DNA from: Candidatus Woesearchaeota archaeon
Lineage (GTDB): Archaea; Nanobdellota; Nanobdellia; Woesearchaeales; SKIA01
Direction of reading: 5' to 3'
Assembly (NCBI GenBank): GCA_043771635.1
Contig: JAYVHA010000019.1
Location: forward strand, 1,248-65,247
Length of the DNA stretch: 64,000 nucleotides
The notes under the pieces are model-generated. The model saw nothing but the letters and a program-made list of their open reading frames with translations, did no database searches and was not told the origin of the DNA. Shown here one piece after another: positions 23,602 through 55,326 of the stretch (within the stretch, counting starts at the first letter, position 1; each line of letters begins with the position of its first letter). Both the position numbers and the translations under genes were made by a program.

Positions 23602-23676
23602 GCACCTGTAGCTCAGCCTGGATAGAGCGTAGCACTCCTAATGCTAAGGTCCGGGGTTCAAATCCTCGCAGGTGCG
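23602..23676 (+). tRNA. tRNA-Arg (anticodon CCT)
   Basis: Folded by hand into a cloverleaf. Acceptor GCACCTG/CAGGTGC. D-stem GCTC/GAGC. Anticodon stem TAGCA/TGCTA with loop CTCCTAA. T-arm CGGGG-TTCAAAT-CCTCG. Confidence 0.85.
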
Positions 23677-33370: not shown

Positions 33371-33485
33371 ACTCTAAAACGCATAGCTGCTCTTTTAAAT
33401 GCTGCTGTTCACTCTCACGTAGATACGTTTAGAGCTCGGAACTAGTGAACTTGGCAGAATATTTATAACGGGCTGACTCAATTTA

Positions 33486-34064
33486 TTGTACATGAGTACC
33501 AGTGATCCTGTACGCGCACATCAAGATGCGATGCTAGCACTACAGCACGAGTTCGATCGTAAAATCACATATCACCGACAGAAAGCATATCATGATCCTG
33601 CCGAGATTTACTGGCTAGCGCACGAATTTCTTACAGCAATATTGCAGAGAGCGGAACGCCACCATACAGAAGAAGAACTTGGAGCTATGCTAACTCAACT
33701 TAAGCACGATTTTATTTCCCTGCCCCCCGAACTAATCGAAGCGTGGCGCATATTTCTAGGTCAGCTCGCATACGCCCAGTACGGTGGTTACACAACTGAA
33801 ACACGCCACGTACAACTGTTACTCGACCAATGCGCACTGCTAATTGAAGAAACCCTTCGCGAAGTAGTAACTGCGCCAGACGAACTTACCAAACAACTAC
33901 AAGCCCTGAAGGTGCTCGTGCATAATGGCGAACTAGGACGCGCCGAACACCAATACCGTACAATCATTCAAGCCTATGAACGTCTTCCGGATGAACGCAA
34001 GCAAGCACACTATCATAGAGTAGCTAGCGCGTTTCAGACTATATCCGCTGCACGTAGCGCATAA
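33486..34064 (+). CDS. Hypothetical helical protein
   Basis: 192 aa, His/Gln-rich, no motif. Divergent from the moxR operon. Confidence 0.3.
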   Translation: MYMSTSDPVRAHQDAMLALQHEFDRKITYHRQKAYHDPAEIYWLAHEFLTAILQRAERHHTEEELGAMLTQLKHDFISLPPELIEAWRIFLGQLAYAQYGGYTTETRHVQLLLDQCALLIEETLREVVTAPDELTKQLQALKVLVHNGELGRAEHQYRTIIQAYERLPDERKQAHYHRVASAFQTISAARSA

Positions 34065-34131
34065 AAATTAAAATATATAATTCACTAAAATAATTGTAAG
34101 ATTCAATCCTCCTTCCGTAAAGAATTAAAAA

Positions 34132-37797: not shown

Positions 37798-37919
37798 GCG
37801 CGCACCCGCTTTTCTAATAGCTCATTAACTACTTGCTGAATCGTTTTAGATTCTTTAACGGCCTTTAGCTTTAATTTGGTATGCAACTCTAACGGGAGAT
37901 CCACGTTGATATTAGTCAT
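37794..37919 (-). CDS. Unannotated 41-aa ribbon-helix-helix (CopG/Arc-like) protein, translationally coupled (ATGA) to the giant surface-protein gene
   Basis: Translates as MTNINVDLPLELHTKLKLKAVKESKTIQQVVNELLEKRVRA, a typical RHH beta-strand plus two helices. Its stop overlaps the downstream ATG. It lies below the 60-aa ORF cutoff. Confidence 0.45.
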   Translation of the reverse strand: MTNINVDLPLELHTKLKLKAVKESKTIQQVVNELLEKRVRA

Positions 37920-38259
37920 ATCCCCTGCTCCAATTCCTCAATTAAGAATGCCCTTAGAGACTTCCCTTTACTAACTGCTGCTAGCTTGCAGCGCTTATGT
38001 AGCGCAGGCGGAAGCTCAATATTTATTCTAGTCACAAATAACTACTGATAAAGCCATTTATATAGGTTTGTATACTTAACAAATTAAATATAGTTAATTA
38101 ATTTATACACTTTATATAAATATATAAAATACCATAACTACACTACACAACATAACCTACGTAAGTAATGTAAGTTACATAAATATACTAAATTATACGA
38201 TTCCCGCCAGTTCTAAACCTAAAGAACTAAGACTAGAATTATTTGTTTCGAAACACATT
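37920..38259 (-). promoter_or_regulatory. AT-rich 340-bp intergenic region with multiple TATA-like elements. Putative promoter for the RHH and giant-gene unit.
   Basis: Sequences such as TTAATTAATTTATACACTTTATATAAATATATAAAATA. No ORF. Confidence 0.4.
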
Positions 38260-40434
38260 CTAAGGTTTCTTACTGCCTAGGCCAAGTCTAAGCTCATCAT
38301 AAACACGTGCAAGGTCATCATAAATTTCGCGCTGCTCCGCTAAAGTTGCTTTTGCGTACCATGATTCAAGCACTTGATAGAGCGCTTGGGCGAGCTCCTC
38401 TTTGTTGAACTGGATTGCGAGGTGCAATTGGTTAAGAAGCAAATAACCACGATCAAGCGCAGGAGTCTCTGCAGGAATGTCGCGTAGTTGCAAGTCCTGG
38501 TCTCGAGCACGTAAATCATCAACTGTGAGCACCGCTGTTTGATATACTAGTTCTCGCGTTTCTTGAATTAGAGAACGCAGTACAAGTTCATTCACTGGCA
38601 CGCCCGCAAATTCTAGAACATTTATACGGATAAAGAACTTTCGAAGTATCCGGGCTAAAAGCGGGTTCAAGCGATTAACATTTACCGCTTTAACTAATTC
38701 TTCATTTGTGAACTCGAACTCGAGTCCGAGTGACGCTTTGAAGTAGTCACGTATAATTCGCGCAAGCTCTTCTTGACTACGAATAATAGTCTGCGTACCG
38801 AGCCGCGCCTCTAACTCTGCAAGGCGACGAATAATTTCCTCCTTTGTTGCTGCAGCTAGCAGTATCTTTCTGTTGGTTCGTTGATGGCGTAGTAAAAATG
38901 CCATCAGAGCGCTTGCAATCTGACGTTTGAGAATTATTGCGAGTAAGAAAGCAACGGCTAGCGCTATTCCGCCGATGAGTAGCGCAGTAAACCAAGGGAA
39001 ACCTGCCGCAGGGAACTGCTCTTCAACGCAAGCCGCACAGAAAAGTCCACCGCAATCAATTTGCTCTTCCCCACCATTTCTTATTCCGTCGGAACAACTT
39101 GTACAAGGAGCGCAATCAGGCCCTCCACAGTCAAGCCCTTTTTCTTCACCATCCATTTTTCTGTTTGAACAAGTGTTGCACTGCTCGCAGAACGGACCGC
39201 CACAATCCACACCTTCTTCAAAACCATTTTGGATACCATCAGTGCACAATGTACAAGCAGAGCATACTGCGCCACCGCAGTCAACACCCGTTTCATCTTG
39301 ATTCAGTATACCGTCTGCACAGTTAGGCACGTACCCGCATGGGCGAACTTCCGTGCGCGTAACAGAGCCAGGACACTGCTTAGTATCAATACAAGAGCGC
39401 CAGGAAAAGCCCGCACGGTACTCATCAATACTAGGCGACGCACCAGGTGCAGGAGTGTATAATATATCCCCCCGCACACCTGTAATCACTATGTTTGCTG
39501 GATTTGCAGGCGAAACTCGAACGCTGCGCGCTACTTGACAAGCGCTCCAATCATAACAGAAGTAGTTCTCAAAACAAACAGGGTTTGTTGAAGTGCGTGA
39601 GGCGCCACCACCGCCACCAGCTCCACCACCACCGCCTCCACCACCGCCGCTTGAGGACGAGCTAGAGGAACCACCAGAACTGCCTGACGACGGCGGCGGA
39701 CAAGTTACGTTTAACTTTACAGTATTACTTATTGCACTTAGATTAGTCGGATCTGTTGCATTGAATACAACGCTTTCTACACCGCACCAACCGGACGCAG
39801 GTGTAAGCGTTACTTCTCCAGCAGTGAAAGCAATACCAATATTAGAATTACCAGTCACAGAGTATGCTAAAATATCAGCATTCGGATCAATAAAATAATT
39901 ATCGAGATCAAACGCTACAAGCACAGTTCCATACTGCCAGGTTTGATTTGGAATATTTTGTGCGAGAAACGGAGTATTCAAATTTTGGGAAATGGTGAAT
40001 GTATTCAAGTTTGTAGTTATAGCGTTTGTACAGCCCGAACCATCGTCCACAGTAAGTAAAAGAGTGTAAGTGCCAATCTGAGATGAATTTGGCGTAAACG
40101 CAAATGTATGAGTTGAGCTGGAGAATAACGCGAGTCCCGTAGCTGGACCGGATAGCGCAGCAGATGAGAAAGCAAAACTTACTTGGACTGGATCAGAGGC
40201 AGTCATTGTGCATGAGTAAGGAGTATCCACATAGGCGTTCATAGTACAAGAAGATAGGTTTAGCGTCGGCGGCGTGTTTACACAAATAGTCAATTGCCCA
40301 TTAGATGTAACTCTACCAGTAGTAGACGCATCACGTACTAGGATATACGCATTCTGCGCCAAGACTAGAACAACAAGAATAAGGAATGCAATCCACAAAT
40401 ACTTTGGATGCTTACGCACGGAGCACCACCTCAC
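38260..40434 (-). CDS. Single-pass surface protein. From N- to C-terminus: glycosylated ectodomain, poly-Ser/Gly linker, 4 Cys-rich 25-aa repeats, TM helix, ~230-aa cytoplasmic helical tail.
   Basis: Signal peptide. Linker SSGGSSSSSSSGGGGGGGGGAGGGGG. Repeat consensus C-x-DG-x2-N-x2-E-x-G-x-DCGG-x2-C-x2-C, four copies. TM segment FPWFTALLIGGIALAVAFLLAIIL. Confidence 0.65.
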   Translation of the reverse strand: MRWCSVRKHPKYLWIAFLILVVLVLAQNAYILVRDASTTGRVTSNGQLTICVNTPPTLNLSSCTMNAYVDTPYSCTMTASDPVQVSFAFSSAALSGPATGLALFSSSTHTFAFTPNSSQIGTYTLLLTVDDGSGCTNAITTNLNTFTISQNLNTPFLAQNIPNQTWQYGTVLVAFDLDNYFIDPNADILAYSVTGNSNIGIAFTAGEVTLTPASGWCGVESVVFNATDPTNLSAISNTVKLNVTCPPPSSGSSGGSSSSSSSGGGGGGGGGAGGGGGASRTSTNPVCFENYFCYDWSACQVARSVRVSPANPANIVITGVRGDILYTPAPGASPSIDEYRAGFSWRSCIDTKQCPGSVTRTEVRPCGYVPNCADGILNQDETGVDCGGAVCSACTLCTDGIQNGFEEGVDCGGPFCEQCNTCSNRKMDGEEKGLDCGGPDCAPCTSCSDGIRNGGEEQIDCGGLFCAACVEEQFPAAGFPWFTALLIGGIALAVAFLLAIILKRQIASALMAFLLRHQRTNRKILLAAATKEEIIRRLAELEARLGTQTIIRSQEELARIIRDYFKASLGLEFEFTNEELVKAVNVNRLNPLLARILRKFFIRINVLEFAGVPVNELVLRSLIQETRELVYQTAVLTVDDLRARDQDLQLRDIPAETPALDRGYLLLNQLHLAIQFNKEELAQALYQVLESWYAKATLAEQREIYDDLARVYDELRLGLGSKKP

Positions 40435-40852
40435 GTGTAAAGTCTACATCCCAATGCCCGAGAAACGCCAAAGCATCAAGTTCACGATCCATCGGCACAA
40501 AAAATGCAGGTCTACCCAGCTTTTGTCCACCCCATTCGGGCAACAAACCTATGCGACCTTGCACTCCCATTAACGCGTGGCTAAACACCTTCTTCCGACC
40601 AGGGTTCAAACGAGCAAGTAAATAAGTGATTAGCGACCAGCTCCCGACCCCAGCCATTTTTCTGTATGATTGCCCATATCGATGCGAGTAGCCCCGCTCT
40701 AAAAACTCTCGCACGCGCGTATGAAGCTGTGATGCAGGCAGACTAATGCAACCTGGCACCCGCGTGGCACCCGCAGTAATAGCGAAATGAGTCTCACCAA
40801 CAGTAACTATGTCGATGACGTCAACCTGCTTCAGTAAACCACTGAATTGCAC
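40412..40852 (-). CDS. Hypothetical protein with Cys...His-x-Asp residues, possibly a papain-fold/transglutaminase-like cysteine peptidase
   Basis: ORF of 146 aa with a conserved-looking VPGCISLP and C-terminal GHWDVDF. The assignment is speculative. Confidence 0.25.
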   Translation of the reverse strand: MQFSGLLKQVDVIDIVTVGETHFAITAGATRVPGCISLPASQLHTRVREFLERGYSHRYGQSYRKMAGVGSWSLITYLLARLNPGRKKVFSHALMGVQGRIGLLPEWGGQKLGRPAFFVPMDRELDALAFLGHWDVDFTREVVLRA

Positions 40853-40983
40853 AATACTCGCAGCTTCGCGACCTTTTTATTAGTATCGAATACGCAAAAG
40901 AGATTGACAAGAAGTTACCCACTTTAAAGCTGAAAAATATCAACTATTTACGATAAAGTGATTAAACAAGTTATTAGGATAAT

Positions 40984-41418
40984 TCATTTATTAGGCGAAT
41001 AAGGCACTACATACAAAGTACCCTGGTAAGTGCCAAGCGGAGCATCGAGCGACGGACGCAAACTAATGTTTACCTCAGCAGGTAAAGTAGTAATACTGGG
41101 CTGTATTATGATCCACTCACTTCCTTTACCTCTTGCTAACACAAGTACTTGACGCTTGGCTTGCGCTTCTTGCGTCATGCTGCCAATGCCCGCCTCGACT
41201 TGCAAAGTACGCCAAGAGGCTCCTCCAGGACCTAGCTGACCAAGCCTAAATACATCTTTTCTAGTATCGACACCTGGTACGTCCGCAATTACAAATAGAT
41301 AGGGTATAGACTGAGTTCCGTCAGGAAATTTTTCATTACTTGCAGTCAAGATATACACGGAGGCAGCACTTATAGCACCAACAAAAAGAACTAGAAAAAT
41401 AACAGAGATCAAACGCAT
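40984..41418 (-). CDS. Small secreted protein
   Basis: N-terminal signal peptide (MRLISVIFLVLFVGAISAAS), 144 aa. Confidence 0.4.
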   Translation of the reverse strand: MRLISVIFLVLFVGAISAASVYILTASNEKFPDGTQSIPYLFVIADVPGVDTRKDVFRLGQLGPGGASWRTLQVEAGIGSMTQEAQAKRQVLVLARGKGSEWIIIQPSITTLPAEVNISLRPSLDAPLGTYQGTLYVVPYSPNK

Positions 41419-41422
41419 AATA

Positions 41423-42841
41423 TCATTTCCTCGTGCTTTGGGGACTTGGCTGTGGTGGCGCCCGAGGACTGTCAGGAATTACAGCGTTTGGCGCAGGCGA
41501 GGCAGACTTAGTAGTTTCAGTGTCTGAACCTGGACCCCCGCCTTCATCTTTGCGCCTATGGTAGCGCGAGATTGCAAACAAGATTACCGACGCAACTAGA
41601 ATTATTGCGATTATACCAACAATCAAGTCAGCAGCTGAGAGTTCAACTACAGAGTCCGCTCCAGCAGGAGCTTCATAAGTTGGCGGCTTAGGCGTTTCAT
41701 TAAACACAGCAATCGGCAACAACGCAGTTTTAGAGCCGCCAGGGAAATAAACTGTAACCGTTGCTAATGCCTGCCCTGGCAGTATAGAACGATCAGTTTC
41801 CCAGAAATTAGTCATAGCGCCAGGTTGAAACGGGTCAATAGCAATTGAAGGTGTCGTACTTGGAGTTGCTCCGAGAACTACAGTAGAGTAAACATTATCA
41901 AGACGTTGATTCCACAAACTCTCCACGTGCACAGTGTAGCGGTTTACAGGCTTATCCAAATAGAGCGGTCCTTCTAGTGCAACAATATCTACATCTTGAG
42001 TGCCTACTGCAAACGAACCATTTGATTCGGCAATAAGATTGTTGTATTCTAGTTTCGCCTGCAACTGATATTTACCTGGCGAATACCCGCTTGATGGAAT
42101 TAATTTGGTGAAATCCTTATTACTACTTCCCGCTATTTCCATCCCATCAAAAGTAAACACATCTTGTAACTCTCCTGCAGCACTTACAATGCGAACTGTT
42201 GCCCGCCCAGAAGTAATAGCCTCTGCACCAAGATTATTTACAAGTAATTTTAGCTGAGTATTCTGTCCTTGAGGAACACTAGGCGCACCAGCAGTAAGCT
42301 CAGCATATTGACCAGGGTATGGTTTCCAAAGAATTATTCTATACCCAACTTCAGTTCTAACTGCGAATGTACCGCCAGTGTCGTCCGGAGCACGTTCTGC
42401 AAAAAATACAAAAGTTGTATGAAAACCAGGAGTTGCAAGTTCTGCAGGGGCTACAAATGCTAACGGAACTGACGCGGTACCACGAGCAGGAATTCGAATA
42501 GGTTGCTTTACCGCAACGGAATTTTTTAATACACCTTCAACACGAACATCAACATCTACAGGCCCATCATTATTGTTAATTAGAGTAACAGTTAAGTCAC
42601 TGCGCTGATTAGGTTCAAAAGTAACATCGACGCGAGGGGGACTCACACCCATAGCCAGTACAGTAGGAAGCGAAGCGATCATGCTCAAAAGCAGCAAAGA
42701 ATAAACTAAGACCTTTGACGAGCTAACCAATTTTGTATTCGCTCTTGTCATGTTTGAAAAAAGCACATCATCGTTTAAAACGGTATTCTTATTACTATTA
42801 GGTTTAGCAATAAATAATAAATTTCTTGGAAGTAGGCTCAC
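41423..42841 (-). CDS. Surface protein with beta-sandwich (CARDB/DUF11-like) repeats and a C-terminal TM anchor with a ~50-aa cytoplasmic tail
   Basis: Signal peptide (likely start at the Met near 42751). C-terminal IVGIIAIILVASVILFAI followed by RYHRRKDEGGG. Confidence 0.5.
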   Translation of the reverse strand: MSLLPRNLLFIAKPNSNKNTVLNDDVLFSNMTRANTKLVSSSKVLVYSLLLLSMIASLPTVLAMGVSPPRVDVTFEPNQRSDLTVTLINNNDGPVDVDVRVEGVLKNSVAVKQPIRIPARGTASVPLAFVAPAELATPGFHTTFVFFAERAPDDTGGTFAVRTEVGYRIILWKPYPGQYAELTAGAPSVPQGQNTQLKLLVNNLGAEAITSGRATVRIVSAAGELQDVFTFDGMEIAGSSNKDFTKLIPSSGYSPGKYQLQAKLEYNNLIAESNGSFAVGTQDVDIVALEGPLYLDKPVNRYTVHVESLWNQRLDNVYSTVVLGATPSTTPSIAIDPFQPGAMTNFWETDRSILPGQALATVTVYFPGGSKTALLPIAVFNETPKPPTYEAPAGADSVVELSAADLIVGIIAIILVASVILFAISRYHRRKDEGGGPGSDTETTKSASPAPNAVIPDSPRAPPQPSPQSTRK

Positions 42842-42853
42842 TTCTCACTCACC

Positions 42854-43462
42854 TTAGATTGCAGAGAAGGTGAGAGTTGAGATGCCAGTGCAACCACCAG
42901 AGAAGCCTACAGCGTCTTGCGGTATAGTTACATTAACATACAACTGAAATGCTCCGGAAGTTGGCACGATTTGCGGACAAGCAAGGCGAGTTGTGCTGTC
43001 TAAGGTAGTCCACGAACTTACGTTTGTACCGTTGCAGCTAGTCGTTATGAACTGAAGTGTAGGGTTTGTGCCACCGATTAAGGTCGCAGCACTGCAACTG
43101 CTTGTTACGTTTACGGACGCGTTAACATTGCCTACATTTTGTACTCTAATAAACCGAGGCGTTACGTTATCACCAGTGCAATTCGCGCCAAACACTCCGT
43201 CACATGCAACTGCATCGTTTGTTGCACAAGTATAATTTGTACCTGATCTAGGAGTACAAGTTCCGAATGCAAGAGTCTTGTTTCCAGCATCTACTTGAAT
43301 GTTAAGTGCACTTGCAACAGTAAGTGACACGTTACCCGTGTCTGTTGTTGCGCGACCTGTAAGACCAGGCAATGCGTCGATACGGATTAAAAAAGATGCG
43401 GAAACTACTAAGAGTGCACCAATTACTAACATTGCTAATGCACTGTTTGAAAGTTCGCTCAT
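42854..43462 (-). CDS. Pilin-like or adhesin-like secreted glycoprotein, paralog 1
   Basis: N-terminal hydrophobic anchor MSELSNSALAMLVIGALLVV. Many NxS/T sequons. About 76% identical (151/199 aligned positions) to the adjacent paralog. Confidence 0.5.
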   Translation of the reverse strand: MSELSNSALAMLVIGALLVVSASFLIRIDALPGLTGRATTDTGNVSLTVASALNIQVDAGNKTLAFGTCTPRSGTNYTCATNDAVACDGVFGANCTGDNVTPRFIRVQNVGNVNASVNVTSSCSAATLIGGTNPTLQFITTSCNGTNVSSWTTLDSTTRLACPQIVPTSGAFQLYVNVTIPQDAVGFSGGCTGISTLTFSAI

Positions 43463-43483
43463 GGTATGTATCCTCTTGTAATT

Positions 43484-44101
43484 CTATATTGCTGTGAAGG
43501 TTAACGTTGACGTTCCTGTACAACCACCCGAGGAGCCTACTGCGTCCTGCGGGATTGTAACGTTCGAAAATAGTCTGAATGCTCCAGAAGTCGGCGCAAT
43601 TCTTGCACAAGCAAGAGTGGTTGTTGTACCTAGCGTAGTCCAAGTTGTAACGTTGGTCGCATTGCATTCAGTAGTCTGGAATTGAAGTTGAGGATTAGTT
43701 CCGCCAATTAAGGTTGCTGCAGTACAGGAGCTTGTTACGTTGACTGAGGCGTTGACGTTACCGACATTAACTACGCGGATGAATCGAATGCTTCCATTAT
43801 CACCAGTGCAGTTTGCACCAAACACTGCGTCACATGCAACTGCATCGTTTGAGGCGCAAGTATAGTTAGAGCCTGCACGAGGAGTACAAGTACCAAAGGC
43901 GATAGTGCTGTTACCTGGGTCTACTTGGATGTTAAGTGCGCTTGCGATAGACAACGAAACGTTTCCAGTATCAGAAGTTGCCCTCCCGGTAAGTCCGAAT
44001 GTTGTTCCATCACTATTGATAGTATACACCGTTGTGCCAACAGTAACAACCAGAGCGGCAAAAACGAGAAGTGCGAGAGTACTATTGGAAATTTCTGCCA
44101 T
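43484..44101 (-). CDS. Pilin-like or adhesin-like secreted glycoprotein, paralog 2
   Basis: MAEISNSTLALLVFAALVVTV anchor. Conserved GLTGRAT(S/T)DTGNVSL and CTPR(A/S)G(S/T)NYTCA(S/T)NDAVACD blocks. Confidence 0.5.
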   Translation of the reverse strand: MAEISNSTLALLVFAALVVTVGTTVYTINSDGTTFGLTGRATSDTGNVSLSIASALNIQVDPGNSTIAFGTCTPRAGSNYTCASNDAVACDAVFGANCTGDNGSIRFIRVVNVGNVNASVNVTSSCTAATLIGGTNPQLQFQTTECNATNVTTWTTLGTTTTLACARIAPTSGAFRLFSNVTIPQDAVGSSGGCTGTSTLTFTAI

Positions 44102-44103
44102 TG

Positions 44104-44316
44104 CTATTGTCCACCGGGAACGTTTAACTGTAAAGTGCCATCGACACCAGCGCGTTCACCAACTTGTAAATTAACTGTGCTATCTGCCACGCTTTGCGCG
44201 GGAGACGCAGACCTAGGGAGAGAATCATGCGCCATGAGCGAATACGTTCCGAAACCGCTTACTGCGATAACAAGAACAAGGAGAATCGCGACGACATTGC
44301 GGGAAACCTCAACCAT
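44104..44316 (-). CDS. 70-aa protein with an N-terminal hydrophobic anchor (pilin-like class III signal candidate)
   Basis: MVEVSRNVVAILLVLVIAVSGFG. The start lies 3 nt after the upstream stop. Confidence 0.35.
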   Translation of the reverse strand: MVEVSRNVVAILLVLVIAVSGFGTYSLMAHDSLPRSASPAQSVADSTVNLQVGERAGVDGTLQLNVPGGQ

Positions 44317-44435
44317 TGAATAGTTTCCAGTTTAGCCAGTTTATAAAAGTTTCTAAATAAAGTGACTCGAACAAGGAGTGACAAATTAAGATTTGAAAAA
44401 TGGTTTTAAGATATAAAGATAATTTCTAAAATATT

Positions 44436-44828
44436 TTATTGTACGGGCGCAGGCACAGTGAAGTTAGCAGGCCTCGTTAATACTTCTTGAACACAGGCGA
44501 CTTCTTCGCATTGTGATGCTACAAAAGTAAGGTTGATGAATGAAAGCGGCACAGGAGTAACAGTACCCTCGATGTTTACTGAACACGAGCGGTTTTCTGC
44601 ACTGTCACCTGCGGCGACTGAGGCGCAATTCTTCGCAACCCAAGCAACTGGATCAACATATTTTCCACAAACTACTCGACTACACTCCCATTTATTGTTG
44701 GCGCTATCTGCACCAGCAATTTTAGCATCCCTACTTGACATGCTGAACGCAGTGAATGCGAGTGCAACTGCGAGAATTGCAATAAGTATGTACATAGTCA
44801 CGAAATGAGAGGATTTATTGCGTTCCAT
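44436..44828 (-). CDS. 130-aa secreted or anchored protein
   Basis: A charged N-terminus followed by a hydrophobic helix (MERNKSSHFVTMYILIAILAVALAF), then Cys-containing segments. Confidence 0.35.
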   Translation of the reverse strand: MERNKSSHFVTMYILIAILAVALAFTAFSMSSRDAKIAGADSANNKWECSRVVCGKYVDPVAWVAKNCASVAAGDSAENRSCSVNIEGTVTPVPLSFINLTFVASQCEEVACVQEVLTRPANFTVPAPVQ

Positions 44829-44829
44829 G

Positions 44830-46047
44830 TTAATTCCTATCCTTGCGAGTGTAGAATCGGTATATAAAATATGCTGCTAATATAGTAAGTAGAATTACCA
44901 GCACAATAGTAAATGCTCTGTTTGATGTAGCGCCTGGTTGAACCTCTACTGGACGTTCAATCGAATCTACACCTAGAATGATAGGGCGGGTTTCTTCTGA
45001 TACTTTATCTGCATAAATTAGCTTGGCTCTTAAAACCGCAGGACCAGCAGTAGCGCTTTTTGTCTCTAGAAACCCTGTAAAACGACCCTCGGCTAGAGGC
45101 ATAATTGTTTGTGAGGCGGAAGTTGCAGTACCTATAGTACTATTCTGCTCTAAAATAAACATAGCCTGTACTGGCAGCGGCGCACCCCACTCGTTTAATA
45201 CATCCACAGAAACGCGAAATGGATCACCCAGTCTAAATTCACCAAAATTAATTCCTAGTATTTTAACATTAAGCGCACCAACAATAATTTCGCTTGTTAC
45301 GCGTAGTTCTGTGGAACCATACGGAACTGACGCGACCGCAGTATACACACCAACAGCGCGAGGATTCCAAGATGCAACTAGATCGCGACTTTCACCTGGT
45401 AAAATTGTTACTTGAGCAAATTCCTGTCGTACCCCATCAAGCAAGATGGAAGATTGGGTGCTAATTGATTGAGTACCAACATTAAGTAAGTGTAGCGTGA
45501 TTAGTACTTCGCTCCCAACTATCCCGCTTGAACTCAGGAGCTCTCCAGTCAGAAACGCACCTTCTTTCGCTGTTTGAACTCGGATAACGTGCATAACCGC
45601 AGATGAAGCAGCCACTGTACCTGCACCAACTGCGCGCGACTCGAATAAAATGCCCGACTCGGAAGTACCAGGCACCGTGTTAGCAGGCAGACGTATTTGC
45701 ACTGGAATTGCACGTGATTCACCGGGCGAAATAACTACTGAAGGGGGCACATCAAGAGCGCCGCCAATAGCTAAAGCGCCTGTCGGCGAAATAGTAATTT
45801 CGAGAGCAGACGACTCATCGTTTCTGACTAATACATCATAGCGTACGACTTCGTTTGCACTGAAAGCTATTGTTTTACTTGCAGGACTTGCTGTGAGGGC
45901 AGACGCTGCACTAAGTGAACTTACAACCAAGATAACTAATAACATAACTAACTTAGCTCGAGAATTGGAATAATTCATTCTAAACTCGCTCCTAGAACAG
46001 TCAAGGTAGTATTTTTTGCACCTTGAGTCTCGCCTTGTGGAACCCAT
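44830..46047 (-). CDS. Surface protein with a beta-sandwich domain and a C-terminal TM anchor. The likely start is the Met near 45978.
   Basis: Signal peptide MNYSNSRAKLVMLLVILVVSSLSAASA. C-terminal FTIVLVILLTILAAYFIY followed by RFYTRKDRN. Confidence 0.5.
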   Translation of the reverse strand: MGSTRRDSRCKKYYLDCSRSEFRMNYSNSRAKLVMLLVILVVSSLSAASALTASPASKTIAFSANEVVRYDVLVRNDESSALEITISPTGALAIGGALDVPPSVVISPGESRAIPVQIRLPANTVPGTSESGILFESRAVGAGTVAASSAVMHVIRVQTAKEGAFLTGELLSSSGIVGSEVLITLHLLNVGTQSISTQSSILLDGVRQEFAQVTILPGESRDLVASWNPRAVGVYTAVASVPYGSTELRVTSEIIVGALNVKILGINFGEFRLGDPFRVSVDVLNEWGAPLPVQAMFILEQNSTIGTATSASQTIMPLAEGRFTGFLETKSATAGPAVLRAKLIYADKVSEETRPIILGVDSIERPVEVQPGATSNRAFTIVLVILLTILAAYFIYRFYTRKDRN

Positions 46048-47198
46048 ACTTTAAGTTCGAATTCGCGAAGCGCTCCGAGCGTTAGGTTACTTGTCAAACT
46101 AGTGTATCCGCTGGTTACGTTTATCCACGCGCTGCTATTTTCATCAGCATACTGGAAATAACTCGTGCTAAGGGCTTGGCTCACCCATAATGCAGCGTTT
46201 GCTTTGGCAGACGTAAGTACATCAACATTACCCGAGTTATTGTATACAAGAGGAGCAGGCGAGCTCGATAAAGTATCATTAGTACGGTTGGCTGTTGGGT
46301 CACTCGGAACAAGCGAGCCGAAATCAGTTGCGCCAGTGGTAAAGGTTATTCCAACGACACTTGGTATGCTAAAGTTAAATTGCGTTGCGTACGCACTGCA
46401 AGTATTACTTGTGTCGCAAGCGCGCACAGTCCAATTATACGCGCGGTCAACGCACAACTTGTCAATGCTCAAGTAGTATGCGGAACTACTGTTCTTTAGT
46501 GGAATAGCTGCGCATCCGCTTGGACTAGTAATATTCCACTGGTAAGTTACCGCATCACCATCAGGATCAGAGACATTTGTCCAGTTGAACGTCGGATAAC
46601 GTGATGAAACTGTGTAGTTATTATTTAGCGGGATTAGGAGCGTTGGTACTGACGGAGCGCTGTTTGATACGCTACCGCACACCTTTCGCGTGTACGCGTC
46701 ACAATCTCCAATATGGGCGTTTGTACTGTTACTGCCTTCAGCAGTGTTCGCGAGCGAGAGCATGCAACCGTATCCTGTCGAGCAAGCCGTATTGTTATAC
46801 TGAATCGACACAGTAGCTAGAGCTGCGGAAAAACACATACTAGTATTGTAGGTACTTTCGTTTGCTTGTTGTGCATGTGCATTGTCAGTGTCGGCAAGGC
46901 GCAGCCAAGTAGTCGCCGCGCCACCGCACGAAGTATTAAACGCACTTACTGCTACTGTAGTTGAATTGCAACATAAACTGTTCGCATATGTACCAACAGA
47001 AACATTTTGTCCGTGCGAATTATTCCATCCGCCAGTATCATTCGCCACACCTAGAAGTTTAATGGTGCTTGCACCACAAGAGCTACTCGCTACAAAGCTG
47101 CAGTTCAAATAACCGAGCGCGCTCGGTACGCTAGACAACAACAGCAAGGTTGCTACAACAAGTATACCTATCGGCCACATGCTAGCGGCAGAGTTCAT
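45975..47198 (-). CDS. Secreted Cys-rich, heavily N-glycosylated protein with a PTFNWTNVSDPDGDAVTYQW Ig/FN3-like repeat
   Basis: Signal peptide MWPIGILVVATLLLLSSVPSALG. About 40 NxS/T sequons. Many Cys residues. Confidence 0.5.
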   Translation of the reverse strand: MNSAASMWPIGILVVATLLLLSSVPSALGYLNCSFVASSSCGASTIKLLGVANDTGGWNNSHGQNVSVGTYANSLCCNSTTVAVSAFNTSCGGAATTWLRLADTDNAHAQQANESTYNTSMCFSAALATVSIQYNNTACSTGYGCMLSLANTAEGSNSTNAHIGDCDAYTRKVCGSVSNSAPSVPTLLIPLNNNYTVSSRYPTFNWTNVSDPDGDAVTYQWNITSPSGCAAIPLKNSSSAYYLSIDKLCVDRAYNWTVRACDTSNTCSAYATQFNFSIPSVVGITFTTGATDFGSLVPSDPTANRTNDTLSSSPAPLVYNNSGNVDVLTSAKANAALWVSQALSTSYFQYADENSSAWINVTSGYTSLTSNLTLGALREFELKVWVPQGETQGAKNTTLTVLGASLE

Positions 47199-48871
47199 TG
47201 CAGCGTTGCTCCACTAAGGAAACTGCCGGCAAGAAGTACGTCTCCTACTTGCGTTATTACGGCAGCATCAGTACCAGCTGCCGTGCGTATAACAAAGTCT
47301 CCACTTGTAGTTCGCTGCGGCGTTGTTCGCGCAGTTAACTTTCCTGCTGAGCGAAGTGCACCTTGTTCGTCGATTGATAGTGTGACAATTCCAGCACCGT
47401 CTTTTATGAGCCAGCCGCTCACTCCAGGTGTCGTACTAAATGTAGCGGCGCCGGTAACAACCATGGTCCCATATTTGTCAATTGCAGCTGCTGCACTGCC
47501 GTCTGCAGCTTCCACAACAAAGCGCCCACGACCACTGCGCAATAGCCACGCTGCACCTTGAGTGCCAGCTATGCATACACTATCAGTATATTCTGCGCCT
47601 GGCTGGTAAACAGTGCCATCTGCGACGCAGGCTGCTTGTGACGCAGCGCAGATTCCTCCTGTTAGTTCACCGTGGTACTGGCTTGTTAGACAAACGCCAC
47701 TTCCACACTGCGATCCTAAAGTACATGCCGCGCCGAGCGCAACTGTAACGCCAGGAATTACTTCCGGAGTATCTGGAACAGGAGCGGGTACAACTGGAAT
47801 TACAACAGGGGGCGCAACAGGCGGCACCGCAGTTATGGTAGTATTATTTGATTCATTTGTGCTATTAGTTGTTGCAACAATAGGAGGCGCAGGTGTAACG
47901 GGTGGCGTCACAACTGGTGGAGTCGTTACTGGATCAACTATTTCGTTGCTTGATGAATTAGTCTCGTTCGATGAATTAGTCTCAGTTGTTTCATTTTCAA
48001 GAGCGTGAGAAATTGGTTCTCCCCGCGTGCCGTATACAACGCGTTCAATGTAGAACTCTACAGCACCGCTCAGTTCAATATCTAGCGCCGCGCTTGCATT
48101 GAGCCCGGGCAGAGAGCAGGTTTCGACGCAAGCATTTAGAAATGCCACAGACTCGTCAGATTGCGCATTCGGCGCAGTTTCTGTGACTTCAGGAGTGTCA
48201 GTTTGTGGCGACGCAGGCAATGTTACTGCTCCAGGTTCACTTGGAGACAGCGTTTCAATTACAGTATCATCAGTAGTCACTCTTCCAGTTAGTCCGCTTG
48301 CACCCTCTTTCTCACTGTCGTATGATGCCACGAGCAACCGAGCATCCCCTAAACGCAAATATACTTTCGCCACCCCATCTCCGCTTGCAGTACCGTCGAT
48401 TCGCAACGACGAGAGAGGATCAGTAATTGAAAGTGGAACCGTTTCACTGCCAGTATAAACGCTGTCAAGTGGCAGCGCATAGAACGATTCATCTTGGCCA
48501 AAAGTGAACAAACCCGTTATAGCTCCAAAGTTTAATGCGATTAAAGCAGCAAACACAATTACAATTGCAAAAGGTACTGCTTTTCGGAGTCTAGGGTGTG
48601 ACGGCGGCTGCGCAGCAAGCATTGCCTCAGTACTTGCAAGATGCTCGTTCAAATCACGGATGACGTCTTTAGGATCTTTACCCGCGTACTCCCGCGCAAC
48701 GATCTGCTTCGCCATTTCAGGCGTTAATTTACCAGACGCTACTTCGCGATCAATTTCAGCTGTAAATTCGTTTACTGCGTCACGCTCTTTCTCGAACTTC
48801 TCGATAAGTTTTTCGAGTTCAGCTCTCATAAGCGCACCACTTTCTTTATAGCACGTTGATACGTGGTCCAA
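47195..48871 (-). CDS. Type II membrane protein: ~95-aa cytoplasmic coiled-coil N-terminus, one TM helix, Pro/Val/Thr-rich stalk, Cys/Gly-rich C-terminal ectodomain
   Basis: TM segment AVPFAIVIVFAALIALNFGAITGLF. The stalk has PPVVTPPVTPAPPIV...PPVAPPVVIPVVPAPVPDTPEV. 4-nt overlap with the downstream gene. Confidence 0.5.
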   Translation of the reverse strand: MDHVSTCYKESGALMRAELEKLIEKFEKERDAVNEFTAEIDREVASGKLTPEMAKQIVAREYAGKDPKDVIRDLNEHLASTEAMLAAQPPSHPRLRKAVPFAIVIVFAALIALNFGAITGLFTFGQDESFYALPLDSVYTGSETVPLSITDPLSSLRIDGTASGDGVAKVYLRLGDARLLVASYDSEKEGASGLTGRVTTDDTVIETLSPSEPGAVTLPASPQTDTPEVTETAPNAQSDESVAFLNACVETCSLPGLNASAALDIELSGAVEFYIERVVYGTRGEPISHALENETTETNSSNETNSSSNEIVDPVTTPPVVTPPVTPAPPIVATTNSTNESNNTTITAVPPVAPPVVIPVVPAPVPDTPEVIPGVTVALGAACTLGSQCGSGVCLTSQYHGELTGGICAASQAACVADGTVYQPGAEYTDSVCIAGTQGAAWLLRSGRGRFVVEAADGSAAAAIDKYGTMVVTGAATFSTTPGVSGWLIKDGAGIVTLSIDEQGALRSAGKLTARTTPQRTTSGDFVIRTAAGTDAAVITQVGDVLLAGSFLSGATLQ

Positions 48872-49116
48872 ACAGTGCGATCATCACGCTGCAGCATCAC
48901 AGCAATCTGACTATAAGTCAAACTATGCTCTTCTTTTAGATAACGGACTATTGCTTCAAGTGCAGAGAGTTCTCTGTCCTTCAGAACTTCGATTGGGATA
49001 GCTATCGGTAACGCTCGAATGTCTATAACATGAGTTTTACGATTAATGACCATCCTTACCCTGTGAGTACCCACACTGTAAGTAATTAAAAAGGTGATTG
49101 TTGGAGTTGATAACAA
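48826..49116 (-). CDS. Small HTH transcriptional regulator (sigma-70 region-4 / LuxR-like helix-turn-helix) at the head of the surface-protein operon
   Basis: LSALEAIVRYLKEEHSLTYSQIAVMLQRDDRTVWTTYQRAIKK fits the region-4 HTH pattern. The likely start is the internal Met at 49053. Confidence 0.45.
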   Translation of the reverse strand: MLSTPTITFLITYSVGTHRVRMVINRKTHVIDIRALPIAIPIEVLKDRELSALEAIVRYLKEEHSLTYSQIAVMLQRDDRTVWTTYQRAIKKVVRL

Positions 49117-49189: not shown

Positions 49190-49261
49190 CGTCCCCTGCC
49201 GGGATCGAACCGGCGACCTTTCGATTAACAGTCGAACGCTCTACCGCTGAGCTAAGGGGAC
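49190..49261 (-). tRNA. tRNA-Asn (anticodon GTT)
   Basis: Hand fold. Acceptor GTCCCCT/AGGGGAC. D-stem GCTC/GAGC. Anticodon stem TTCGA/TCGAA with loop CTGTTAA. T-arm GCCGG-TTCGATC-CCGGC. Confidence 0.85.
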
Positions 49262-49264
49262 TGA

Positions 49265-49338
49265 TGGACCCTCGGTGATTTGAACACCGGACCTCTCGAT
49301 TATCAGTCGAGTGCTCTACCAGGCTAAGCTAAGGGACC
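49265..49338 (-). tRNA. tRNA-Ile (anticodon GAT)
   Basis: Hand fold. D-stem GCTT/GAGC. Anticodon stem CTCGA/TCGAG with loop CTGATAA. T-arm CGGTG-TTCAAAT-CACCG. The acceptor has one T.T mismatch at 3-70 as read. Confidence 0.7.
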
Positions 49339-49482
49339 TTAATGCGATGGATTAAAAGGGCGTTTATAAGGATTTCCCAGTTGTAGCGCTATTTGAGCTT
49401 ATTGCAAGAACTCCAAAATAAGCCAGTTTTGACAAGTCAAACGGCCGTCGAGCATAAATACCCTCTAATTTATTGACCTATA

Positions 49483-51111
49483 ATGACTAAACATGTGGGC
49501 GCCGCCGCCGATGCATTTACTGATGCAACGGATTATGTGGTGAAAGCAGAGGCCCCAGTGCCTATTACAGCTAGCAAGCAAAATATTGCTGCTAAGCCTG
49601 CAGTCAAGAAGCGCGCTCAACGCACAACTCCTCCTGGCGAGGTAGATGCGCCTGTAAAGAAACCACGAGCAAGGGCGCCAAAAACAGATCCTATTAGCAT
49701 CATGGTTCGTGAAACTGAGGACGCAGGCAAGCAAACCTTGGTGTTCGTGAACGCGAAGCGCTCCGCAGAATCCGTTGCTGAGGATCTTGCACAGGCACGT
49801 GAAGCGAGGCACCCTCTAATTGCAAAAAAAATACTACGCGCACTTAGCAGCCCTACTACCCAGTGTCGAAGGTTAGCATTTTGCGTTGAGCGCGGCACAG
49901 CATTCCACCATTCAGGACTGTCGTCAGCGCAGCGGCGTATCGTTGAAGAAGAATTTCTTTCTGGGAACTTGACTGCTATTTGCGCAACTCCGACTTTAGC
50001 TGCGGGAGTGAATGTTCCAGCGTTTCGCGTAATTATTCGCGATTTGCACAGATTCGAAGGGTACATGACAGAAATTCCTGTCCTCGAGTACAGGCAAATG
50101 ATTGGGCGAGCAGGACGCCCGGACTTTCACGACGATTACGGCGAAGCAATAACAATTGCAAAGTCACCCGGCGACGGCGCGTGGATTGAAGACAGATATT
50201 GGAACGGAACTCCTGAACCTATCTACAGTAAGTTGTCAAACTTACCTGCGCTGCGCATGGCAGTCCTATCACTATATGCAACGCGCTTTGTTCGCTCGCG
50301 CGAAGAACTATTTGTGTTCTTTTCTAAAACATTCTTTGCGCATCAATACGGGAACATAACTAAACTTGAAGAGAAACTTATTGATGTTGAAATTCAATTG
50401 ACTGGCTGGGGATTCTTGTCCTCGGTTGGTGGCGCTGCGAGCGCAACGCCAATGGGTCGCCGCGTTTCCATGCTGTATATCGATCCATTAAGCGCGAGCA
50501 TACTTATTGCTGGTATTGAAAGCAAAAAACCGCGAACGGACGCTGCCATAGCGCATTTGCTCTGCTCCTGTATTGAACTGCGGCCGCTGCTTCGCTTGAA
50601 AACAAGCGACTTCGTGTCGGCAGACGCAGCAATTGACACGCTGCTGCCAGAGCCGTCAATGTTCTCTGCTGAGTACGAAGAATTCTTACAAGCTGCAAAG
50701 ACATCAGCCATGCTCGGCAAATGGATGGACGAAGCGCCTGAGGAGACTATTTTAGCAGAGTATGGCGTTAGGCCGGGCGAACTCAAAGCTAAGTTAGATA
50801 CAGCTGACTGGCTACTTTATGGTATGAGTGAACTAGCGCAGTTACTTGGCGCAGAACGGCGCGAATTTATACGCGCACGCATCCGTATGAAACACGGCGT
50901 CAAAGCTGAGCTCGTGCCACTGCTGCGCATGCGCGGAATAGGTAGGGTTCGCGCTCGCGCACTATTCAACAATGGCTTGACTTCTTTGCAACTTATTAAC
51001 GCCGCGCCGGAAACTAAGCTTGCTGCGCTGCTTGGTGTGAAAGTTGCGGCGCGCGTTAAAGAGCAATTAGCTGGCGGCGGATTGCCGTCAAAACAAAGAG
51101 AAAAAAGATAG
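49483..51111 (+). CDS. Hel308/Ski2-like helicase C-terminal portion (RecA2, winged-helix, ratchet and HhH domains) lacking the N-terminal RecA1/Walker domain, with a ~80-aa basic low-complexity N-terminus
   Basis: The segment TLAAGVNVPAFRVIIRDL resembles helicase motifs IV-V, and the motif VI-like QMIGRAGRPDFHDDYGEA is present. No Walker A/DEAH is found anywhere in the ORF. The C-terminal HhH-like segment is LLRMRGIGRVRARALFNNGLTSL. Confidence 0.7.
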   Translation: MTKHVGAAADAFTDATDYVVKAEAPVPITASKQNIAAKPAVKKRAQRTTPPGEVDAPVKKPRARAPKTDPISIMVRETEDAGKQTLVFVNAKRSAESVAEDLAQAREARHPLIAKKILRALSSPTTQCRRLAFCVERGTAFHHSGLSSAQRRIVEEEFLSGNLTAICATPTLAAGVNVPAFRVIIRDLHRFEGYMTEIPVLEYRQMIGRAGRPDFHDDYGEAITIAKSPGDGAWIEDRYWNGTPEPIYSKLSNLPALRMAVLSLYATRFVRSREELFVFFSKTFFAHQYGNITKLEEKLIDVEIQLTGWGFLSSVGGAASATPMGRRVSMLYIDPLSASILIAGIESKKPRTDAAIAHLLCSCIELRPLLRLKTSDFVSADAAIDTLLPEPSMFSAEYEEFLQAAKTSAMLGKWMDEAPEETILAEYGVRPGELKAKLDTADWLLYGMSELAQLLGAERREFIRARIRMKHGVKAELVPLLRMRGIGRVRARALFNNGLTSLQLINAAPETKLAALLGVKVAARVKEQLAGGGLPSKQREKR

Positions 51112-53073: not shown

Positions 53074-55326
53074 TTAACTGCCTTCTTCTTCTTTACCTTC
53101 GGTTACTGCACGGCTAACTTCAACATATCTGCACTTTGGATAGCTCGAGCAGCCCCAGAATGAACCGTAAAAGCTGTTCCGCTGCGCTAGCGGCTTGTTA
53201 CATTTAGGACACGTCTTTGACGCAGGCTCTTCCGGCTTTGGCTTGCCAGGACAAAGTGGATTTACACAATACTCGCGACTACCAAGCTTTAGTAGCGGAT
53301 ACTGATCATGTGGGCACGTCTTGCCAATTGCACGTAGTAATCCTTTTTGTGGTACACTGAAAGTAGTAGTGCATTTTGGATAGTTTGAGCAACCGACAAA
53401 GCGTCCGAACTTACCCTGTCGCAGTTGTAATGTGCCCCCGCAAATGTCAGGACCTAAGTTTGAGCGCTTGTCTTGCGCCGTTCGCTCCGCATCTTTTAGT
53501 ACAGCGCCAATTTCTTTCTCATGCACTTTGAAATGCGCAAGTACTTTGAGAAGATGCGCTTTCGCATGCGCAAGCACTTCTTCGGGTTTTGCACTGCCTA
53601 AGCGGATACTTTCAATTTCTTCTTCAATGTCGCGCGTAAGTTGTTCGTCAGTTATCTCAGGTACATACTTGTCAAGCGTCCCAATGGTTACTAGACCTAA
53701 CTCGCTCGCCGTAATCGATTGCTCATCCACATAACCACGGTCATATAAGTTCTGTACAATATCAGCGCGCGTTGCTTTCGTGCCGAGCCCACGCTTCTCA
53801 AGTTCTTTGATAATAGACGCAGGAGTATAACGGCGCGGCGGCTGAGTCATTTTCTTTTCAATCCCAACTTCTCCCGGCACTTTTGCACCGATTGTAATCG
53901 TAGGAAGAATTTCTTCTTCCAACTTTACGTGTCGACCATATATAGCGTGCCAACCCGGCTCAATTGTGTGAGTACCTCGCGCAACAAAAGATCCCGCGCC
54001 CTTTGCAATTGTTACTGTTTGTGTTTCACGAATGGCAGGATCACCAAACGTAGCGAGAAATCTTCTCACTATAAGATCGTAGACAGCAGCAGTGCGACCA
54101 ACAAGATTTTTTGGTGCGACGCCAGTTGGGAAAATTGCGGGGTGCGCTGGGTCAGTTTTAGGACCGTTATTCGGTTTCAAATCTTTGCGCTTGCTTAGCA
54201 TTGCGGCAATTTCTTTGTACGCAGGTTGCTTGCTAATTTCTTTGATAATTGCAGGTAAACCTAGTTCAGGCGGGAGAACCTGGCTGCTAGTACGAGGATA
54301 GCTCGTGTAGCCACCAGTGTACAGGTCTTGCGCAACGCGCATAGTTTCCTTAGGGTTTATACGCAAGCTTCGGTACGCTTCAGTTTGCAAGGTAGTCAGG
54401 TCAAACGGAAATGGAGGTGCGGCCGATGTGCGCTTTGCATCTACTGCGCTGACCGCTGCCTGACCTTTGGAAGCTGCTTGATATGCCTCTGCAGTAGCTT
54501 GTGCGTCAAACGGATTCTTGATGCAGGCAGCATCGATTTCTACTGAACCAATTTTAGTTGGAAGCGAGAGTTCCCAGTAAGGCACCGGGATGAACGCCTT
54601 GATTTCTTTTTCCTTCTCTACAATAATTTTTAGTGCAGGGCCTTGCACTCGCCCGCTTGATAAAATCTTAAAACCACCTGTGGTCTTAACGGCGAGTGTA
54701 AGCGCACGACTTAGGTTAATACCATAGTACCAATCAAGTTCGTGACGCGTTTTACCGGCCATTGCTTGACCCCAGTTGATAGTATTTGCCTTTTGGTTAT
54801 AGCTGATTCGAAGTTCGTTTTCTGTAAGTGTACTGTACTTCATTCGGTTTGCGTCAGGCCGTTTACAAGCGAAGGCGAGTACAGTGTATCCAATTACTTC
54901 TCCTTCAATATCATAGTCTGTTGCGATAGTAATAACGCTCGCGTGCTTTGCTAGTTTTTCGATCACACGGATGTAAGCGTCAGCACCACTCTTTTCTAGT
55001 GAGTTCCACTTAATATCAAAAACAGGGTAAGTCCAGCCTTTCTTCTCCTTCTTATCCTCAACGACACCATACAAATGGCCTACTGCGCTCGCGACCACAA
55101 TGTCTTTGTCACCGTGCGTGAGCTCCCACCAAGTAACTTTTCCTTGCATTTGCTTGATGGGTTTACTGTTTGATAGGCTCTCCGCTATCTTCTTTGCGCT
55201 GCTAGGTTTTTCAGTAATAATTAATTCATACTTTCCAGCGGCAGCGCTACGCGCTCCTTCCGTCGCTGCGCTAGGCTTATTAGTTTTCTTTATTACGACT
55301 TTTTTTGCAGCCTTAGCGAGCGCCAT
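53074..55326 (-). CDS. topA: DNA topoisomerase type IA (archaeal TopA / Topo III-like) with C-terminal zinc ribbons
   Basis: Toprim at the N-terminus (ELIITEKPSSAKKIAESL). Type IA core. Three C4 zinc-ribbon motifs (e.g. CPKCNKP...CSSYPKC) at the C-terminus. Confidence 0.9.
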   Translation of the reverse strand: MALAKAAKKVVIKKTNKPSAATEGARSAAAGKYELIITEKPSSAKKIAESLSNSKPIKQMQGKVTWWELTHGDKDIVVASAVGHLYGVVEDKKEKKGWTYPVFDIKWNSLEKSGADAYIRVIEKLAKHASVITIATDYDIEGEVIGYTVLAFACKRPDANRMKYSTLTENELRISYNQKANTINWGQAMAGKTRHELDWYYGINLSRALTLAVKTTGGFKILSSGRVQGPALKIIVEKEKEIKAFIPVPYWELSLPTKIGSVEIDAACIKNPFDAQATAEAYQAASKGQAAVSAVDAKRTSAAPPFPFDLTTLQTEAYRSLRINPKETMRVAQDLYTGGYTSYPRTSSQVLPPELGLPAIIKEISKQPAYKEIAAMLSKRKDLKPNNGPKTDPAHPAIFPTGVAPKNLVGRTAAVYDLIVRRFLATFGDPAIRETQTVTIAKGAGSFVARGTHTIEPGWHAIYGRHVKLEEEILPTITIGAKVPGEVGIEKKMTQPPRRYTPASIIKELEKRGLGTKATRADIVQNLYDRGYVDEQSITASELGLVTIGTLDKYVPEITDEQLTRDIEEEIESIRLGSAKPEEVLAHAKAHLLKVLAHFKVHEKEIGAVLKDAERTAQDKRSNLGPDICGGTLQLRQGKFGRFVGCSNYPKCTTTFSVPQKGLLRAIGKTCPHDQYPLLKLGSREYCVNPLCPGKPKPEEPASKTCPKCNKPLAQRNSFYGSFWGCSSYPKCRYVEVSRAVTEGKEEEGS

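Follow-up and report, generated by a model that had tools for sequence, protein, structure and literature searches.

A probable C-terminal subunit of a two-gene Hel308 helicase beside a tRNA-Ile/tRNA-Asn pair in Woesearchaeota

The locus

The window analyzed here is a stretch of 64,000 nucleotides from a Candidatus Woesearchaeota archaeon (assembly GCA_043771635.1, contig JAYVHA010000019.1, positions 1,248 to 65,247 of the forward strand). It carries an open reading frame (ORF) of 542 codons that resembles the archaeal helicase Hel308 without its N-terminal ATPase lobe, RecA1. A divergent tRNA-Ile/tRNA-Asn pair, called by both ARAGORN and Rfam, and a run of putative surface-protein genes lie on its left, while a small ORF and a convergent topoisomerase IA gene follow on its right. 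The distance of 145 bp between tRNA-Ile and the ORF start (a 144-nt spacer) was already given correctly in a preliminary description of this DNA; the start coordinate used there, 49190, is that of the tRNAs and not of the ORF (Table 1). We conclude that the product of the ORF is quite probably the C-terminal subunit of a Hel308 whose two polypeptides come from separate genes.

Table 1. Features of the helicase locus, in positions of the window
Feature	Position	Strand	Basis
Probable split Hel308 C-terminal subunit gene, 542 aa, ATG start	49483..51111	+	Domain, profile, PDB and structure matches
N-terminal extension, residues 1-65, basic, Ala/Pro-rich, predicted disordered	49483..49677	+	pLDDT <50, pI 10.1
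RecA2 lobe without first strand(s), residues 66-235	49678..50187	+	Motifs and alignment
Winged-helix domain 3, residues 245-291	50215..50355	+	Weak Pfam HTH_61 match; aligned to Hel308 domain 3
Ratchet domain 4, residues 356-472	50548..50898	+	PF21280 (Helicase_dom4_arc), E 7e-24
Helix-hairpin-helix domain 5, residues 480-529	50920..51069	+	PF14520 (HHH_5), E 7e-5; 2p6r alignment reaches 683
tRNA-Ile(GAT)	49265..49338	-	ARAGORN and Rfam; divergent from helicase gene
tRNA-Asn(GTT)	49190..49261	-	ARAGORN and Rfam; 3 nt downstream of tRNA-Ile
Divergent intergenic region with two TATA-like boxes	49339..49482	.	Read from sequence
TATA-like box TTTATAA, putatively for the tRNA operon	49363-49369		25-31 nt from tRNA-Ile 5' end
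TATA-like box CATAAATA, putatively for the helicase gene	49453-49460		23-30 nt before ATG

Domain composition of the ORF protein

The ORF protein matches Hel308 from about residue 227 onward and comprises most of RecA2, the winged helix, the ratchet and the helix-hairpin-helix (HhH) domain. Pfam, NCBIfam, PDB and Foldseek matches agree on this assignment to domains 2-5, which had been proposed earlier from the sequence pattern. The best PDB match is Archaeoglobus fulgidus Hel308, 2p6r (E 2e-85, ~39% identity), with query residues 83-530 aligned to residues 243-683 of the chain, and Pfam Helicase_C is matched at ORF residues 131-213. An AlphaFold model computed with 55 homologues has high confidence over residues 66-532 and shows residues 1-65 as disordered; Foldseek on this model again returns 2p6r as the top match (E 9e-33). 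The NCBIfam Hel308 equivalogs are covered over model positions ~230-704 only, and the scores fall below both cut-offs (402 bits against 887 for PRK02362, 273 against 1200 for NF040935) because one third of each model, on the RecA1 side, is unmatched.

Neither a Walker A nor a DExH/DEAD motif occurs anywhere in the 542-aa protein and there is no match to PF00270, which bears out the reported absence of Walker A/B and of a RecA1 region. Besides RecA1, the first ~16-20 residues of RecA2 are also missing. The remaining RecA2 motifs are intact, namely IV (LVFVNAKR, residue 86), IVa (FHHSGL, 141), V (TPTLAAGVN, 169) and VI (QMIGRAGRP, 205), and motifs IVa, V and VI are invariant across 55 C-terminal halves (C-halves).

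The basic character of the N-terminus holds, with an isoelectric point (pI) of 10.1, but its length, first put at ~80 aa, is ~65 aa by homology and by the predicted local distance difference test (pLDDT). Ala or Pro occupies 22 of these 65 positions. The tail is partly common to the closest relative, P0002, only and is absent from other C-halves; the 65-aa basic disordered tail is a lineage-specific addition.

Two complementary protein families

A database search with the C-half yielded 5040 matches at E<=1e-10, the best 120 of which were examined. All but one of these 120 are 464-550 aa long and lack PF00270, and they carry the labels Woesearchaeota, Nanoarchaeota and Nanoarchaeia; the sole full-length protein among them, P0080, has 731 aa. 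As judged from these matches, thousands of Woesearchaeota/Nanoarchaeia proteins share the short form, and the ORF is an ordinary member of this very large and apparently undescribed family. A conserved functional family of short proteins had been named in the preliminary description as a finding that would speak against its proposal; the conservation is indeed there, and it agrees with the split-gene alternative offered in the same description rather than refuting it.

The complementary search used the first 249 residues of P0080 as query and matched 3546 proteins. Among the best 120 examined, 107 are 200-235 aa long, contain a DEAD/ResIII domain only and bear the same taxon labels as the C-halves. 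In a second search, with a profile of these N-terminal halves (N-halves), each of the 120 best matches is 219-274 aa long. A stand-alone RecA1 family thus exists in the databases, as the split-gene alternative expected, and that alternative is supported at the level of the family by the conserved short form together with a RecA1 family that abuts it.

The same two size classes are found in raw metagenome DNA. A metagenome scan was made with the two halves in reversed order, so that unsplit genes gain no score advantage, and returned 80 loci, of which 52 have the N-half only, 27 the C-half only and one an unsplit gene; both halves occur within 10 kb at none of the 80. Complete N-half ORFs are 216-247 aa long in 49 of 50 cases and complete C-half ORFs 476-553 aa in 23 of 25, when each ORF is measured from its first ATG to its stop codon; medians taken from stop to stop are a little longer.

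Aligned with P0080 as the full-length reference, the concatenated halves meet in one loop, where the N-halves stop and the C-halves begin with zero overlap and zero gap. The N-half P0232 aligns with residues 4-218 of 2p6r and with residues 17-213 of Pyrococcus furiosus Hjm (PfuHjm), and the ORF protein aligns with 2p6r from residue 227/243 on. Domain 1 of PfuHjm comprises residues 1-197 and domain 2 residues 198-399 (PMC2636818). These alignment limits and domain borders place the cut inside RecA2, 16-20 residues into the lobe.

Motifs I, II and III of the N-halves are invariant or nearly so. The C-terminal tail of the N-halves, …WRPVKLxKGVYxxGEIEF, is conserved at the level of the catalytic motifs; R203, P204, L207 and G210 are invariant and W202 and V205 nearly so. 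A tail conserved to this degree would be difficult to account for if it did not dock onto a RecA2 partner.

No trace of a split intein is seen, and no Pfam intein domain is found in the 65-aa leader of the ORF. The N-halves stop 0-5 residues past the homology, and the leaders of most C-halves are 20 aa or shorter. Intein trans-splicing, as in the split PolB of Nanoarchaeum equitans, was therefore rejected, given that the halves end at the homology boundary and that the leader of the ORF is disordered and of low complexity.

One N-half-like protein differs at its C-terminus. P0161, a JGI sequence of 255 aa on a 1.3-kb contig, bears a 35-aa highly charged C-terminal tail, …EERRKPGRKTRRHREAEDHA, and may represent a full-length gene with a frameshift or a variant form of the N-half.

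Proposed organization of the split enzyme

The proposed scheme starts from an ancestral Hel308 gene of ~700 aa, which would have been split ~16-20 residues into RecA2 in Woesearchaeota/Nanoarchaeia. The N-half gene (~220 aa) would provide RecA1 with motifs I-III and the first RecA2 strand and hairpin, and the C-half gene (460-550 aa) the rest of RecA2 with motifs IV, IVa, V and VI, the winged helix, the ratchet and the HhH domain. The two polypeptides are expected to associate non-covalently as a heterodimer, in which the tail of the N-half would complete the RecA2 sheet and anchor the halves together. The P-loop of RecA1 could then face the arginines of motif VI in the C-half and form the ATPase site with them, RecA1 binding ATP and the arginines sensing it, while the module of winged helix, ratchet and HhH would handle single-stranded DNA, so that the complex would act as an ordinary 3'-5' Hel308 translocase and annealase. 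For the window this scheme presumes that the halves associate, that the complex has ATPase activity and that an N-half is present in the same genome.

The two genes are unlinked, the N-half residing in a housekeeping cluster and the C-half beside a divergent tRNA-Ile(GAT). In the three genomes inspected (GCA_016187465.1, GCA_016185945.1 and GCA_964628525.1) the N-half is a free-standing gene and its neighborhood is alike: upstream are S27e, eIF2alpha, Nop10, PAC2 and enolase, and downstream come a convergent FtsY, prefoldin and PRPP synthase. A C-half is absent from the 10 kb around the N-half in all three. None of the proteins of this conserved neighborhood is encoded in the window.

The tRNA pair and the promoter region

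The tRNA-Asn/tRNA-Ile pair is found upstream of the C-half in L098 and L099 in the same orientation and with the same 3-nt spacer as in the window. Of the two TATA-like boxes in the divergent intergenic region (Table 1), one would act as promoter of the tRNA operon and the other, CATAAATA, as promoter of the helicase gene; both are conserved in L098. The position of the CATAAATA box speaks for the ATG at 49483 as the real start, and thereby for translation of the basic tail. The two tRNAs presumably belong to one transcript.

Outside the clade of the ORF, 6 of 26 loci have a divergent tRNA-Ile(GAT) in the 1 kb upstream of the C-half. In L116, L119, L123 and L124 a mere 55-62 bp separate it from the start of the C-half, and among L100 and L151 the distance is up to ~450 bp. 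For comparison, a tRNA is present within 600 bp in just 2 of the 52 loci that have the N-half only. The linkage is too widespread for chance and is most simply understood as ancestral to the C-half locus, and the original rearrangement may have broken at tRNA-Ile or captured its promoter. The tRNA adjacency, first remarked on because tRNAs are classical recombination targets, is conserved far beyond this genome and is an old feature of the locus rather than a recent scar.

In L116 (~5062-5118) and L123 (~9936-9996), a single A/T-rich element, GGTTTTTTAAA, is situated about equally far, ~28-32 nt, from the tRNA 5' end and from the ATG. This arrangement suggests that both genes use one bidirectional promoter and that the mRNA is leaderless, and in some lineages the C-half and tRNA-Ile probably share one TATA element of this kind.

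A more far-reaching proposal is that the split constitutes a conserved regulatory design and not a neutral outcome of genome erosion. The separate RecA1 would switch the C-terminal module between an ATP-independent annealer or DNA binder, when alone, and an ATP-driven translocase, when the N-half is bound, with expression of the C-half from a promoter shared with tRNA-Ile and one ancient fission at tRNA-Ile. A review citing unpublished data describes a fragment of Hel308 domains 4-5 as a hyperactive annealase (PMC13623763). Small RNAs (sRNAs) of the C/D box type have been reported to flank split genes at their borders in N. equitans (PMC3491384), and in the present locus tRNA-Ile stands at the border of the Hel308 C-half; by analogy, the fission could parallel the sRNA-flanked split genes of N. 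equitans. We consider this combination of claims unlikely as a whole, although not negligible.

In another Woesearchaeota contig, L004, ARAGORN calls a 92-nt 'tRNA-Stop' with anticodon tta (16225-16316); this could be a tRNA that carries an intron, or an erroneous call.

Occurrence of both halves in one genome

Several observations weigh against a two-gene Hel308 in the organism of the window. The RecA1 half was not found in the 64-kb window by tblastn with the N-terminus of a full-length homologue, nor in 10 kb on either side with the N-half and C-half consensus; the 84 kb covered in total amount to about a quarter of the contig. Matching of NCBI accession blocks gave no same-genome pair for this split site. 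A scan of a genome collection, with a chimeric N+C alignment as query, listed no same-genome pair for this split site either and returned mostly unsplit Hel308; it listed 80 loci from the first 600 pattern matches and favors unsplit genes. Finally, a crude neighbor-joining tree sets the GC-richer clade of the ORF outside a group of mainstream split and some unsplit genes, so this clade might have split its gene independently, or composition might have distorted the tree. The shared cut site and the tRNA-Ile linkage nevertheless argue for a single fission.

From the matching distribution of the two families and their complementary junction, we infer that the halves co-occur in one genome. A GC-richer N-half lineage was considered as the partner of the clade by amino-acid composition (GARP/FYMINK ratio) and by profile search; it was rejected, as it belongs to other organisms. 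A map of residue-type substitutions was too diffuse for designing a better N-half query.

The absence of an N-half from the 84 kb could also mean that the clade has lost its RecA1 partner and that the C-half works alone, in ATP-independent DNA binding or annealing through domains 3-5 and the basic tail. In line with this, the N-half of the window genome is missing from both lists of N-half matches (the best 120 each, of thousands), and the clade has gained the basic disordered tail. On the other hand, motifs IV, IVa, V and VI remain intact across a clade in which synonymous divergence is saturated, and the arginines of motif VI need an opposing P-loop; moreover, a quarter of the contig is a small part of the genome, and N-halves are unlinked to C-halves everywhere else. 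A C-half acting by itself is accordingly regarded as improbable, and a heterodimer with an unlinked N-half is preferred.

Integrity of the short gene

The clade of the ORF contains nine proteins of 63-69% identity. In the clade relatives with visible context, the limits of the helicase gene are unchanged and a small ORF and then the convergent topoisomerase IA gene follow downstream, and on contigs of sufficient length FGase, ROK and FBP aldolase lie beyond these, while the genes on the left of the helicase vary. The comparison of the locus in relatives that had been proposed therefore shows retention of the short gene and of the downstream synteny and, in L098 and L099, of the tRNA pair. The topoisomerase IA of the window (53074-55326, minus strand) has C-terminal zinc ribbons, and its convergent placement next to the C-half gene is kept in each of the four clade relatives examined.

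In comparison with the orthologues L098 and L099, amino-acid identity is 67-70%, nonsynonymous divergence (dN) is 0.26-0.31, synonymous divergence (dS) has reached saturation and none of the ORFs is interrupted by a stop codon. This pattern indicates that the helicase ORF evolves under purifying selection. A decaying Hel308 pseudogene would account for the missing ATPase lobe and for scores below the NCBIfam whole-protein cut-offs. However, all 542 codons are intact, the catalytic motifs are invariant, dN is low against saturated dS and the model is confident over residues 66-532; the intact ORFs, the low dN and the conserved gene limits exclude decay, to which we assign a very small probability, as well as a truncation private to this genome.

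Nine contigs of independent ENA and Logan assemblies, two of them 321 kb and 213 kb long, carry the identical gene with identical flanks. The sequence does stem from metagenomic assembly, and chimeric joins can arise at tRNA genes. Nevertheless, it is hardly credible that the short ORF is a product of faulty assembly or gene calling and hides a contiguous full-length gene, because the same gene recurs in these independent assemblies, L098 and L099 retain the tRNA pair, the promoter-like elements and the start region, and stop-to-stop ORFs at 75 other loci fall in the same two size classes.

Relation to unsplit and otherwise split helicases

The ORF protein is like the archaeal Hel308/Hjm enzymes of known structure (A. 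fulgidus 2P6R, P. furiosus Hjm 2ZJ2 and Sulfolobus solfataricus 2VA8) in domains 2-5, both in sequence and in predicted fold. It is unlike them in lacking RecA1 and the first RecA2 strand(s), in possessing the 65-aa tail, and in being encoded, on the reading proposed here, by one of two unlinked genes.

Hel308 genes without a split, 699-732 aa in length, are found in Woesearchaeota-labelled metagenome-assembled genomes (L016/L169, with L016 at 10001-12100, L017 and L021) and are 52-65% identical to the split consensus. Together with P0080, they constitute single ORFs that are collinear with N-half plus C-half and show 50-60% identity over the two. The split is thus not universal under the Woesearchaeota label. 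In the crude neighbor-joining tree these unsplit genes fall between the clade of the ORF and the mainstream split genes. No tRNA is found anywhere in the unsplit loci L016 and L017.

A different cut is observed in the complete Woesearchaeota chromosome CP070803.1 (L036, 9986-14584), in which Hel308 is present as two retained ORFs of 371 and 345 aa. The 371-aa ORF stops right after motif VI (GRAGRP), and 2.4 kb with four unrelated genes precede the 345-aa ORF. Two of these genes are on the opposite strand; a membrane protein and a PHP-like protein were assigned by eye. A tRNA-Pro begins at the stop codon of the second ORF. L036 therefore differs from the locus of the window in its cut site, in the proximity of the pieces and in having a downstream tRNA and no upstream tRNA-Ile.

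Split genes in nanosized archaea are already known. In N. equitans, reverse gyrase (NEQ434/NEQ318) and the 'large helicase-related protein' Lhr (NEQ003/NEQ409) are split, and Lhr is cut elsewhere in Nst1 (PMC3655853, PMC4117796, PMC6349945). As in the Hel308 described here, these are cases from nanosized DPANN archaea in which two unlinked ORFs jointly span a full-length nucleic-acid enzyme, and one helicase is cut at different sites in different lineages, Lhr within Nanoarchaeota and Hel308 in the present family and L036. In contrast to Lhr and reverse gyrase, Hel308 is cut within the motor, between the RecA lobes, so that its ATPase site would have to form in trans. A further difference is that the Nanoarchaeota cases are confined to one or two genomes, whereas the Hel308 split is conserved over thousands of database sequences from Woesearchaeota-type metagenome lineages. 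No publication describing a split Hel308 in DPANN archaea was found in the literature searched, and this split appears to be undescribed.

If the proposed pairing is correct, thousands of proteins annotated as 'hypothetical', 'helicase-related protein' or 'DEAD/DEAH box helicase' would be the two subunits of one Hel308. The enzyme would represent a natural superfamily 2 motor with its RecA lobes on separate polypeptides, apparently joined by a donated beta-strand, and the split form could help to separate ATP-dependent translocation from annealing in Hel308. The same enzyme cut at at least two sites within one phylum label, with one breakpoint tied to a tRNA, also offers a well-populated case of gene fragmentation in nanosized archaea.

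The neighboring surface-protein island

On the left of the tRNA pair, window positions 34132-48871 (minus strand) contain ~11 same-strand ORFs for putative surface proteins with Ig-like (Big_9, PKD) and CARDB domains and many N-x-S/T sequons. The run holds a paralogous pair (42854-43462 and 43484-44101, with a 300-nt repeat of 72% identity) as well as coding repeats rich in Pro and Thr. In each relative, the corresponding left flank is different. A gene for a small helix-turn-helix (HTH) protein with a weak Sigma70_r4_2 match (48826-49116, minus strand) is located between the tRNA pair and the surface genes. The association of HTH and surface genes is also seen in the relative P0009, and in L017 an HTH homologue is encoded 9.7 kb upstream of the unsplit helicase gene.

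Among the major ORFs at 32264-49116, Pfam detected no integrase or recombinase, the matches being Ig-like, CARDB, HTH and MoxR domains only. No direct repeat of the tRNA 3' ends is present in the window, which answers a check proposed in the preliminary description; the best partial matches of 8-15 nt are at chance level (E>=0.78). Above-chance matches to the tRNAs occur only among the tRNAs of the window itself, between tRNA-Ile and tRNA-Asn and between tRNA-Ile and tRNA-Arg (23647-23664). The GC content of the island is ordinary. The tRNA pair was considered as an integration site and rejected, since there is neither an integrase nor a tRNA-derived repeat.

A recent truncation of a full-length Hel308 by insertion of this island (~38260-49116) at the tRNA pair, one of the alternatives first put forward, would fit the variability of the left flank among relatives and its Ig-like and CARDB content; but with no insertion machinery or repeat, an unremarkable GC content, the same short gene and start region in 63-70% identical relatives with other left flanks and the short gene in thousands of distant genomes, and no RecA1 remnant upstream of the ORF, it is exceedingly doubtful. 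The left flank is a variable surface-protein region beside tRNA genes and is not the source of the short helicase.

A bacterial-type DNA gyrase B gene is encoded on this archaeal contig at L013 (20064-21185), just right of the window.

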